64,000 bases of DNA from Escherichia coli (GTDB taxonomy: Bacteria > Pseudomonadota > Gammaproteobacteria > Enterobacterales > Enterobacteriaceae): the NCBI RefSeq assembly GCF_048403405.1, contig NZ_CP183129.1; one strand, 5' to 3'. Shown here in pieces: positions 17,495 to 20,072 of this stretch. The translations under genes and the position numbers were made by a program. The notes beneath the pieces are model-generated. The model did no database searches. It was given only the letters and a program-made list of their open reading frames with translations, and had not been told where the DNA came from. Positions within the stretch are counted from its first letter, which is position 1, and each line of letters starts with the position of its first letter.

Positions 17495-18439
17495 TTATTT
17501 CACCGTACCTAAAATTTCGATTTTCGCTGCTCTGGCTTTGACTTTACGTGACCAGATAGAGGTAAGAATTGGCACCAGAATCGAAGTCACAATGACCGCC
17601 GTCGCGACCAGCGAAGTTGCTGCCGGAGCCATCGGTTTAAACGCAGGCACCATTTCTGCAATCAGCACAGGTGTCGCTACCGCGGCCCCTGCGGAACTGG
17701 AAGCGGCAATTCCGGCAGTGCCATCGCCACCGCCAATCAATTTATCGGCGATAATCAACGGAATACCGGTCACGATAATTACTGCCACACCCAACAGGAT
17801 CCCCAGCAAACCTGTCTGGGCAATTACAGTCAAATCAATGGTATTGCCCAGCGCGAAGGCAAAGAATGGAATCAGCGTCTGCACCGCTTTGCTGAAAAAT
17901 TCTCGTAATTCAGGGTCAAGGTTCCCAAGGGCAAAGCCCACCAGGAACGGTAATACTGCGCCGACGAAAACATGCGGTTCAAACGAGGCAATCCCGGCAG
18001 TGCCCAGAATAATCATCGTCATGAGCGGCCCGGACTCCAATGACATCAACACAAATGCCCCAGCTTCTTCTTTTGTGCCGTACTGCTGCATGATGGAAGC
18101 GTAAAGTCCGCCGTTGGTCATATCCATCGCCGCCACCAGCGCCAGCGTTGAAAGTCCGGCAAAGAATCCAACTTCAACACCATGTTCCGGAATAATGCGC
18201 GAGGCAATTGCCGCAACCACCCACGCGACGGCAATTTTTGTTACCACCAGCGTACCGGATTTACGCAATACCGTTCCCGTCGCGCTTAATTGTATTGACG
18301 CCCCCATGCAAAAAAACCACACCGCCAGAATGGGCACCGTACCGGTAATCATCCCGTTGGTGAATGATCCAAAATATTTCCCCGCCTCCGGCGAGAAGGT
18401 GTGGCACAGTGCGCCAAGGAATAGCGGGACGAGCATCAT
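17495..18439 (-). CDS. kdgT: 2-keto-3-deoxygluconate permease KdgT, in-frame portion only (314 aa; the 13-codon N-terminal extension seen in K-12 is out of frame here)
   Basis: Translation [29 protein letters not shown]...; upstream codons for [13 protein letters not shown] are in the -1 frame and hit a stop. Confidence 0.85.
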
Positions 18440-18596
18440 CCCCCCGGGATTTTCTCAATCGAGCGTTTTATCTGCATTTCCATCACCTGTCGGCATATTT
18501 TTAAGGGCTGATGCGTAATTCCTCAATGGAGCATCAGTGTTGATGGAAACGAAGATAGACATTCATTTAATCAATAAAAGTGATCAAAACCACATC

Positions 18597-18618
18597 AATT
18601 GAAACACTGTTTTATTTT
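18597..18618. promoter_or_regulatory. Candidate KdgR operator in kdgT promoter region
   Basis: AATTGAAACACTGTTTTATTT resembles the KdgR palindromic operator (TGAAAC...GTTTCA type). Confidence 0.5.
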
Positions 18619-18654
18619 TATCGGATCATTGTTTTTATTTTGAAATTGATCACA

Positions 18655-19366
18655 AATAAATATCCTCCGGCATAGCCGGAGGTTTTTCAAATGCGCCTAT
18701 AAGGCTCTCTTACCAGCCGCGCCCTAACAGGCGCACACGATCTGACATTTGCATCCAACTTCGTTACTTACGGCCCGTAAACGGGCTGCCCGGATAGGGA
18801 ATCGATAACTGCTCTCCCATTTTATCCTCTTCAAGCTGGTGCTTTATGTAATCCTGTATCTTCGCCGTGTTCTTACCCACCGTATCGACGTAGTACCCTC
18901 TGCACCAGAACTCCCTGTTCCTGTATTTGAATTTCAAATCACCAAACTGCTCGTAAAGCATCAGACTGCTTTTCCCTTTCAGATATCCCATAAAGCCGGA
19001 TACGCTCATTTTGGGCGGGATCTCCACAAGCATATGGATATGATCTGCACAGCATTCAGCTTCCAGAATCCGTACACTTTTCCACTCACACAGCTTTCTC
19101 AAAATACTGCCTATTGCTCTACGCTTCTCTCTGTAGAACACCTGTCTTCGGTATTTTGGCGCAAAAACTATGTGATATTTACAGTTCCATCGGGTGTGCG
19201 CTAAGCTCTTTTCGTTCCCCATTGGGACCCCCTTTTGATTTCTTGTTTGACACTTGCAGTTGCCAGACCGCAAGGTGTTTTAACAAATCAAAAGGGGTTT
19301 TAATAACTGGCTTAAAGCTGAAAGCTTTCCGGAACCCCCAGCCTAGCTGGGGGTTTTCTGTGCACA
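18655..19366 (-). mobile_element. IS200 insertion sequence (about 0.71 kb, IS200/IS605 family); ends approximate (about +/-15 bp)
   Basis: Contains 152-aa Y1 (HUH) transposase ORF, left-end palindrome AACCCCCAGCCTAGCTGGGGGTT (19333-19355) and a right-end stem-loop CTCCGGC-ata-GCCGGAG (about 18663-18690). Confidence 0.8.
18764..19222 (-). CDS. tnpA: IS200 transposase TnpA (Y1/HUH type, 152 aa)
   Basis: Translation MGNEKSLAHTRWNCKYHIVFAPKYRRQVFY...HIHMLVEIPPK...YIKHQ; HxH motif and catalytic Tyr region; SD AAGGGGG upstream of ATG. Confidence 0.92.
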   Translation of the reverse strand: MGNEKSLAHTRWNCKYHIVFAPKYRRQVFYREKRRAIGSILRKLCEWKSVRILEAECCADHIHMLVEIPPKMSVSGFMGYLKGKSSLMLYEQFGDLKFKYRNREFWCRGYYVDTVGKNTAKIQDYIKHQLEEDKMGEQLSIPYPGSPFTGRK

Positions 19367-19368
19367 AC

Positions 19369-19394
19369 AAAAAAACCACCGCCGTTGGCGATGG
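19369..19394 (-). terminator. Rho-independent terminator of sodA
   Basis: On minus strand CCATCGCC-aac-GGCGGTGG stem followed by T7 run; lies just before the IS200 left end. Confidence 0.65.
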
Positions 19395-19451
19395 TTCATT
19401 TTTTAAGCTGATATGCGGCGTAAACGCCTCATTGCAGCAGGCGGCAAATGA

Positions 19452-20072
19452 TTATTTTTTCGCCGCGAAACGTGCCGCTGCTTCGTCCCAGTTCACCACG
19501 TTCCAGAACTCTTTGATGTAGTCAGGACGGCGGTTCTGGAATTTCAGGTAGTAAGCATGTTCCCACACATCCAGGCCCAGAATCGGGAAGCCGGAAGCGC
19601 CAGAAATAGCTTCACCCATCAGCGGGGAGTCCTGGTTAGCAGTAGAAACCACCGCCAGTTTATCGCCTTTCAGCACCAGCCATGCCCAGCCGGAACCAAA
19701 GCGGGAAGCTGCCGCTTTTTCAAATTCTGCTTTGAAGTTATCAACGGAGCCGAAGTCACGTTCGATAGCCGCTTTCAGGTCACCCTGCAGGGTGGTGCCT
19801 TTTTTCAGACCTTTCCAGAACAGGCTGTGGTTAGCGTGACCGCCAGCGTTGTTGCGCAGTACGGTTTTCTTGTCTGCTGGCAGCTGGTCCAGTTTGGTGA
19901 TCAGCTCTTCAACCGGCAGGTTGGCAAATTCTGGCAGGCTTTCCAGCGCCGCGTTGGCGTTGTTGACGTAGGTCTGATGGTGTTTGGTGTGGTGGATTTC
20001 CATGGTCTGCTTATCGAAGTGCGGTTCCAGGGCATCGTAAGCATACGGCAGGGATGGCAGGGTATAACTCAT
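19452..20072 (-). CDS. sodA: Manganese superoxide dismutase SodA (206 aa)
   Basis: Translation from [38 protein letters not shown] is canonical Mn-SOD. Confidence 0.98.

Follow-up and report, generated by a model that had tools for sequence, protein, structure and literature searches.

The DNA analysed here, referred to as the window, is a 64,000-nt stretch of contig NZ_CP183129.1 from Escherichia coli (assembly GCF_048403405.1). Three genes of the window, sodA, the transposase gene tnpA and kdgT, are all carried on the minus strand, and the insertion sequence that contains tnpA lies downstream of sodA and upstream of kdgT (Table 1). The boundaries of the insert were set by an exact-anchor comparison of the window with the empty site of K-12, which reads GGCGGTGG-TTTTTTT/GTGATC; there, the sodA terminator runs directly into GTGATCAATTTC, in the region upstream of kdgT. 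The occupied site of the window reads TTTTTTT-(GTT GTGCACAG...ATATTTA TTT)-GTGATC, with the insert in parentheses. The hairpin and the T7 tract of the sodA terminator are untouched by the insertion and identical in the empty K-12 sequence, while the other junction, GTGATC, is placed 176 bp upstream of the kdgT start, and these 176 bp are the same as in K-12 apart from SNPs. A first-pass annotation of the window, made from the sequence alone, had described a complete-looking IS200 of about 0.71 kb at 18655-19366. Its identity, completeness, size, orientation and position are all borne out, and the ends differ from those of the 715-bp insert only within the TT/T ambiguity of the junctions.

Table 1. 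Positions of the genes, structural elements and junction segments of the sodA-kdgT region, and of related left ends at other loci.
Feature	Positions	Strand	Remarks
sodA, Mn superoxide dismutase	19452..20072	-	upstream gene, same orientation as tnpA
sodA intrinsic terminator, ACCATCGCC-AAC-GGCGGTGGT plus T7 (19369-19375)	19369..19397	-	insertion target
Whole insert	18654..19368	-	715 bp, relative to the empty K-12 site
5' GTT of the insert	19366-19368	-	3 nt
Core of the insert, GTGCACAG...ATATTTA	18657-19365	-	709 bp
3' TTT of the insert	18654-18656	-	3 nt
Canonical IS200C unit, core plus TT	18655-19365	-	711 bp, fits K-12 empty sites
Left-end subterminal hairpin, palindrome AACCCCCAGCCTAGCTGGGGGTT	19333..19355	-	10-bp stem, 3-nt loop; 0 chance matches expected
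tnpA 5' UTR RNA, Rfam STnc490 (RF01405)	19232..19355	-	146.1 bits, gathering score 56, full length
Long stem-loop, CCCCUUUUGAUUU paired with AAAUCAAAAGGGG	19229..19297	-	Shine-Dalgarno inside the stem
tnpA, 152-aa Y1 HUH transposase (ATG 19222, stop 18764)	18764..19222	-	intact; H61-I-H63, Tyr125
Right-end subterminal hairpin CCTCCGGCTATGCCGGAGG, then ATATTTATT (right end of the element)	18664..18682	-	terminator-like on both strands
KdgR-box match AATAAAACAGTGTTTCAAT	18598..18616	-	0 mismatches, 0.04 expected by chance
kdgT	17495..18477	-	downstream gene, same orientation; 1-bp deletion in G run
Left-end-only loci, outside the window	L020 12640-12730; L021 400-490; L039 near 13664	- (L039)	directly behind a terminator hairpin and T run

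The insert is an ordinary, complete IS200C, a transposase-only element of the IS200 group in the IS200/IS605 family. A single ORF of meaningful size is contained in its 715 bp, and neither tnpB nor iscB is present. Over 709-715 nt it shows 100% identity to copies for which RefSeq lists tnpA as 'IS200C family transposase', and its 709-bp core is 100% identical to the ompX and pqqU copies of other strains. The 152-aa HUH Y1 transposase recognized in the first-pass annotation is confirmed by Pfam (Y1_Tnp, 4.4e-38, model positions 2-121 of 121), by the NCBIfam equivalog NF033573 (transpos_IS200; 147.7 bits, cut-off 55), by the HUH motif and by the catalytic tyrosine. The nearest solved structures are the TnpA proteins of Sulfolobus, IS608 and ISDra2, with E-values from 4e-23 to 1e-14 (among the PDB relatives, about 4e-19 for 2a6m and 2vjv, and 1.9e-16 for 2xm3). 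The H61-I-H63 motif is aligned to the HIH of 2ec2 and 2f4f, and Tyr125, within YIKHQ, to the YIEEQ of the same two structures. A search for disabling mutations in tnpA found none, the gene being identical at the DNA level to the tnpA of strain 4621, annotated as WP_000526135.1. A weak NCBIfam match to REP_Tyr_transpos, at 32 bits, stays below the cut-off of 80.

The element carries a hairpin near each end and, as read from the sequence, no terminal inverted repeats (GTGCACAG... on one side, ...ATATTTATT on the other). The palindrome that had been proposed as characteristic of the left end is found at the expected place, and both hairpins are stable when folded as single-stranded DNA (z = -4.0 for the left end and -3.5 for the right end). 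The left-end hairpin of IS200 is a bidirectional terminator that stops incoming transcription (PMC4513863; PMC5435999), and by analogy with IS608 it is predicted to be a binding site of TnpA as well. The 5' region of tnpA folds with a minimum free energy of -61.5 kcal/mol (z = -5.0 against shuffled sequences) into the left-end hairpin and a long stem, in which the Shine-Dalgarno sequence of the gene, 5-11 nt upstream of the AUG, is buried. The stretch matched by STnc490 is the region of the 5' tnpA sRNA and of the antisense RNA art200 (PMC4513863; PMC5435999). The stem-loop that sequesters the ribosome binding site, the left-end hairpin and art200 keep IS200 nearly silent (Ellis et al.; PMC4513863; PMC5435999). 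Three weak Rfam matches, all far below their gathering scores, are attributed to chance: PsrR1 on the right-end hairpin (23.6 bits), STnc490 on the plus strand (22.4 bits) and EAV_LTH (19.8 bits).

The left end had been placed within about 15 bp of the sodA terminator. The two do adjoin, but the distance is 0 bp, because the 13 nt that precede the left hairpin belong to the element. The comparison of the kdgT-sodA spacer with K-12 that had been proposed confirms that the site is empty in that strain, as are six other IS200C sites; IS200 is not known to occur anywhere in the K-12 genome. In all 11 E. coli copies fetched, the core is exactly 709 bp and is flanked by TT on both sides. The right end, ATATTTATT, is common to E. 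coli, Mangrovibacter and Citrobacter, and since the base after it is not T in three copies, the right end is fixed at this point. Set against the empty sites of K-12, the 711-bp unit formed by the core and TT gives an exact fit at ompX, cysH and sodA (the last in strain 21F61); at pqqU the fit is broken by a single SNP in the flank, and at uhpT and carB it is off by no more than one T of a homopolymer. TT flanks every core, and a 2-bp duplication is indistinguishable from an element that ends in TT; the IS200/IS605 family is not known to make target-site duplications.

Relative to the canonical 711 bp, the window copy has four additional nucleotides, GTT at the 5' end and one T at the 3' end. 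A lineage-specific empty allele was rejected as the source of these bases: the sequence T7-GTTT-GTGATC was found in 0 of 5426 complete genomes, the best match reaching 98.3%. Since no matching empty allele turned up, these nucleotides were either brought in by the element or created as it inserted. The identical 715-nt string is found behind ompX, where the GTT is native flank (K-12: T5-G-T5), and the four bases are probably flanking sequence brought along from a previous site. Cleavage one T-rich motif farther out, at a donor of the ompX type (T5/GTT-core-TTT), would carry such bases with the element. The four sister genomes of the window are not among the 60 matches listed of the 80 genomes with an occupied ompX site. 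An alternative source of the 4 nt is a TTTG duplication flanking a 711-bp element. It is very probable that a complete IS200C integrated just 3' of the T7 tract of the sodA terminator, in the orientation of sodA and kdgT.

Judged from the junction sequences, proximity to terminators is a systematic property of IS200C and not an accident. The seven distinct sites in E. coli (sodA, ompX, pqqU, uhpT, cysH, plaP and carB) all lie 40-80 bp behind a gene of the same orientation, and at each of them the left end abuts the T run of the terminator of the preceding gene. A cross-species set was obtained by an exact-pattern scan of one genome per species, which gave 38 loci from Citrobacter, Kluyvera, Brenneria, Mangrovibacter, Pluralibacter, Kosakonia, Yersinia, Entomohabitans and several MAGs. 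The scan loci and the E. coli sites together provide 34 unique junctions with a genuine IS200 left end, from about 15 species of Enterobacterales; these are not fully independent by lineage, as many of the cross-species loci belong to a small number of genomes (seven loci to Citrobacter braakii and four to Entomohabitans), although the sites differ. A strict detector was applied, which demanded a stem of 6 or more uninterrupted pairs, 4 or more of which are G-C, together with a 3-8 nt loop and a T-rich tail 4-11 nt long. A terminator-like structure of this kind ends at the junction in 32 of the 34 cases, compared with a background rate of 0.22%, taken over about 878,000 positions of the loci themselves, and the two exceptions have imperfect hairpins. 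Five chance matches to the scan pattern lack the IS hairpin, and none of them has a terminator. Upstream of the junction, T occupies each of the positions -7 to -4 in 29-33 of the junctions, any base is found at -3, T is present at -2 and -1 in 34/34, and a G or C precedes the T stretch. The tail between stem and junction measures 4-8 nt with the strict detector, or approximately 6-10 nt when counted by eye from the last G/C pair.

The right end of IS200C, a GC hairpin followed by ATTTATT, resembles the target, a hairpin followed by TTTTNTT. We cautiously favor the reading that the IS200-group elements of Enterobacterales are structure-directed and target terminators that mimic their own right end. 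The competing explanation is that the association is a survival filter: IS200 would insert at any T-rich pentamer or heptamer of single-stranded DNA, and insertions would persist only just behind terminators, where they do little harm. All the data are standing insertions, selection would remove insertions in genes and promoters, and the target of IS608 comprises only 4 nt (PMC5934647). However, of the non-coding TTTTNTT sites in the window only 8/33 follow a strict hairpin, while 25/33 do not, against 32/34 at the junctions; the motif and non-coding survival alone therefore do not predict the observed 94%. The narrow distance between stem and insertion, and the use of the same phosphodiester behind sodA by two IS variants, also speak against a filter acting on indiscriminate insertion, which we consider rather unlikely. 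Purifying selection nonetheless contributes to the pattern to some extent, since the 34 junctions are surviving insertions. If terminator targeting is true, it would provide the element with a safe, transcriptionally insulated niche, and would explain the probable double hit at sodA and the slippage of T-rich cleavage with carry-over of flanking bases.

No explicit description of host terminators as a target of IS200 was found in the literature searched, a search whose scope did not extend to the classical IS200/IS1541 papers, and novelty is not claimed for the pattern. Terminator-like sequences just ahead of insertion sequences, above all those of IS200/IS605, are described in a recent preprint, which interprets them as limiting transposase expression and ties them to the known internal terminator (10.1101/2025.07.22.666184). 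IS200 insertion sites were not mapped in the earlier study of Ellis (2015).

The arrival of the element may be pictured, by analogy with IS608 and ISDra2, as a single-strand 'peel and paste' event, in which a circular top-strand intermediate would be joined 3' of a short target. At nearly all junctions of this IS200 clade, a host intrinsic terminator, made up of a GC-rich hairpin and TTTTNTT, immediately precedes the left end. The tetranucleotides AGAA (left) and AAAA (right), located 5' of the IS hairpins, are candidate guides for T-N-T-T and T-A-T-T, respectively. Such guides are known from IS608, in which each hairpin is directly preceded by 4 nt that base-pair with the cleavage sites (PMC5934647; PMC3597680). 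The guide pairing proposed here and the idea of a target that mimics the right end are likewise borrowed from these two relatives. The GC skew is negative on the plus strand of the window, the minus strand being G-rich, and the top strand of the IS is thus on the lagging-strand template. In K-12, sodA lies on the clockwise replichore. A top strand on the lagging-strand template is the rule in the IS200/IS605 family (PMC5027513). Cores that are identical at separate loci of different strains, together with the two variants of the element at the sodA site, are indirect evidence of transposition activity.

IS200C sequence of some extent is present in 3100 of 5426 complete E. coli genomes, and the number of places per genome reaches 35, out of roughly 10,700 in the whole set. 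The suggestion that the element marks a natural-isolate background is correct in that the background is not K-12, but such a marker is not rare, as 2063/5426 genomes have a copy that spans at least 80% of the element. The sodA site is occupied by IS200C in 6 of the 5426, and PGAP gives the protein at this site the name 'IS200C family transposase' in six genomes. The terminator of ompX, for its part, is occupied in 80/5426 genomes of distant lineages, including EPEC E2348/69, as against six for sodA, which suggests that there are hot and cold terminators for IS200C.

Four of the sodA-site carriers (4621, MS 69-1, TUM1226 and OX030728) share 99.9% identity with the window across the query, strain 4621 being equal to it over 6.7 kb except for one base in the kdgT G run. 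In the other two, 21F61 and OZ501671, the flanks differ from the window by 1.3-1.9%, as much as those of K-12. The copy of the 21F61 lineage shows 6/709 core differences from that of the window and has neither the GTT nor the additional T; two of its variants, 53G and 290C, also occur in another IS200C sublineage. The sodA insertion is therefore already known, with RefSeq annotating the same insertion in four close genomes and a second one in two distant genomes. The same position behind sodA has probably been hit twice independently. A single ancient insertion would account for the equal position and orientation in both lineages and for cores that differ less (6/709) than their flanks do (1.3-1.9%). 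Nevertheless, the two lineages are as distant from each other as the window is from K-12 and the carriers amount to 6/5426, so that very many precise losses would be needed; the junctions differ, with GTT and the extra T in the window lineage alone; the window core equals copies at other loci, while the 21F61 copy carries 53G and 290C; and the divergence of the flanks reaches up to the element, the KdgR box differing about 50 bp from the right end. Two insertions are by far the more parsimonious account, because one ancient insertion requires near-universal loss, and we regard a common origin of the two copies as improbable.

With respect to the neighboring genes, it had been stated that the insertion separates the kdgT promoter and KdgR operator from sequences farther upstream and that a terminator hairpin of the IS is placed between sodA and kdgT. 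The second statement holds, the left-end hairpin being located there. The first applies to the sodA terminator and to nothing else: the 176-bp region and the KdgR box are whole, the latter, which matches the consensus of the KdgR regulon, being separated from the insert's right end by 38 bp and unchanged by the insertion. As this region and the box are intact, no regulatory effect is indicated. Three hairpins now follow sodA in series, namely its own terminator, the left-end hairpin and the right-end hairpin with a T-rich tail. The effect of the insertion is expected to be close to nil, and it is probably neutral for sodA and kdgT. A scan of positions 18400-19500 yielded no canonical promoter under the criteria of the scan. 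A plausible -35 of kdgT, TTCAAA (18644-18639), can be read from the sequence; the IS ends about 10 bp before it, and a small effect on kdgT may come from this closeness to a candidate promoter.

A CRP-like motif, TGTGA-N6-TCAAA (18639-18654, minus strand), lies directly upstream of the plausible -35. The T with which it begins closes the insert in the window and the sodA T7 tract in K-12; the motif is preserved in the window, given that T stands at the same position in both, and one base would then belong both to the sodA terminator and to a possible kdgT activator site. The G run at 18440-18445 of kdgT (minus strand) has six G in the window and seven in K-12 and four sister genomes. With G6, the frame is shifted after codon 12 and the longest ORF restarts at Met13/14, with 314 aa. 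The same 80-mer with G6 is present in 168/5426 genomes, nearly all without IS200C at the sodA site, and the allele may reflect real slippage or an error in sequencing a homopolymer. It is very improbable that the insertion alters kdgT regulation by replacing the DNA upstream of about -46 or changing the CRP-like site, or that the frameshift might be linked to it: the right end does lie about 10 bp from TTCAAA, the first T of the TGTGA does come from the IS and the window does have G6 instead of G7, yet the terminal T of the IS keeps the half-site, only SNPs separate the KdgR box and all that lies downstream from the K-12 sequence, kdgT is intact in the four sister genomes with the same insertion, the G6 allele is found almost entirely in genomes lacking the sodA-site IS, and the scan showed no canonical promoter to disrupt.

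Two further observations concern other loci. IS200C is found between the plaP terminator and the sbcB stop codon (positions 1430-2216; strains Z22-2 and CUVET17-1136, loci L009 and L011), an interval that in K-12 (L015) contains tsuA and tsuB over about 1.5 kb; the difference may reflect either polymorphism between lineages or a deletion next to the IS. In a soil MAG and a Citrobacter genome, the left end only of IS200 (about 24 nt, GTGCACAGAAAACCCCCAGCTAGGCTG) is joined to unrelated sequence (Table 1), and these loci may be remnants or belong to another element with the same end.

Compared with known systems, the element is alike to IS200 of Salmonella enterica and IS200C of E. coli in its size of about 0.71 kb and its single 152-aa Y1 HUH TnpA, as well as in the left-end terminator hairpin, the RBS-sequestering stem-loop, the STnc490/art200 region and the right-end hairpin. 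The window copy has 715 bp instead of the canonical 711 bp of IS200C, with the 4 extra junction bases, and otherwise shows no substantial difference; the Salmonella IS200 measures 707 bp (PMC4513863). IS608 of Helicobacter pylori and ISDra2 of Deinococcus have homologous TnpA proteins, subterminal hairpins and no terminal inverted repeats, and they share with IS200C the top strand on the lagging-strand template and, apparently, insertion 3' of a short specific sequence. Unlike IS200C, they possess tnpB, and their targets are the bare sequences TTAC and TTGAT, whereas in IS200C a GC hairpin almost always precedes the T-rich target and the target motif TTTNTT is nearly the right-end cleavage motif TTTATT. 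RAYT/TnpA-REP proteins and REP-targeting insertion sequences involve TnpA-related Y1 HUH enzymes that act on extragenic GC-rich hairpins (PMC3333891); the hairpins next to IS200C, in contrast, are unrelated native terminators of different genes and form no repeated REP family. A parallel in terms of niche is provided by bacterial class C group II introns, which, according to PMC3522654 (citing Robart et al. 2007), insert just downstream of Rho-independent terminators in the orientation of the terminator, a niche interpreted there as safe and transcriptionally quiet. The likeness is confined to the niche, as these introns are retroelements that rely on RNA-DNA pairing (EBS/IBS) and reverse splicing, while IS200 is a DNA transposon with a Y1 HUH enzyme.

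The IS200C copy at sodA is mainly useful as a lineage marker, being carried by 6/5426 complete E. coli genomes. If terminator targeting is true, it would have wider consequences. It would supply a rule for the annotation of IS200 ends, as the core plus TT located directly after a terminator T tract. It would also give the class C group II introns, which are directed to terminators, a counterpart among DNA transposons, and it would explain how 10-35 copies of the element can be present per genome with almost no damage.
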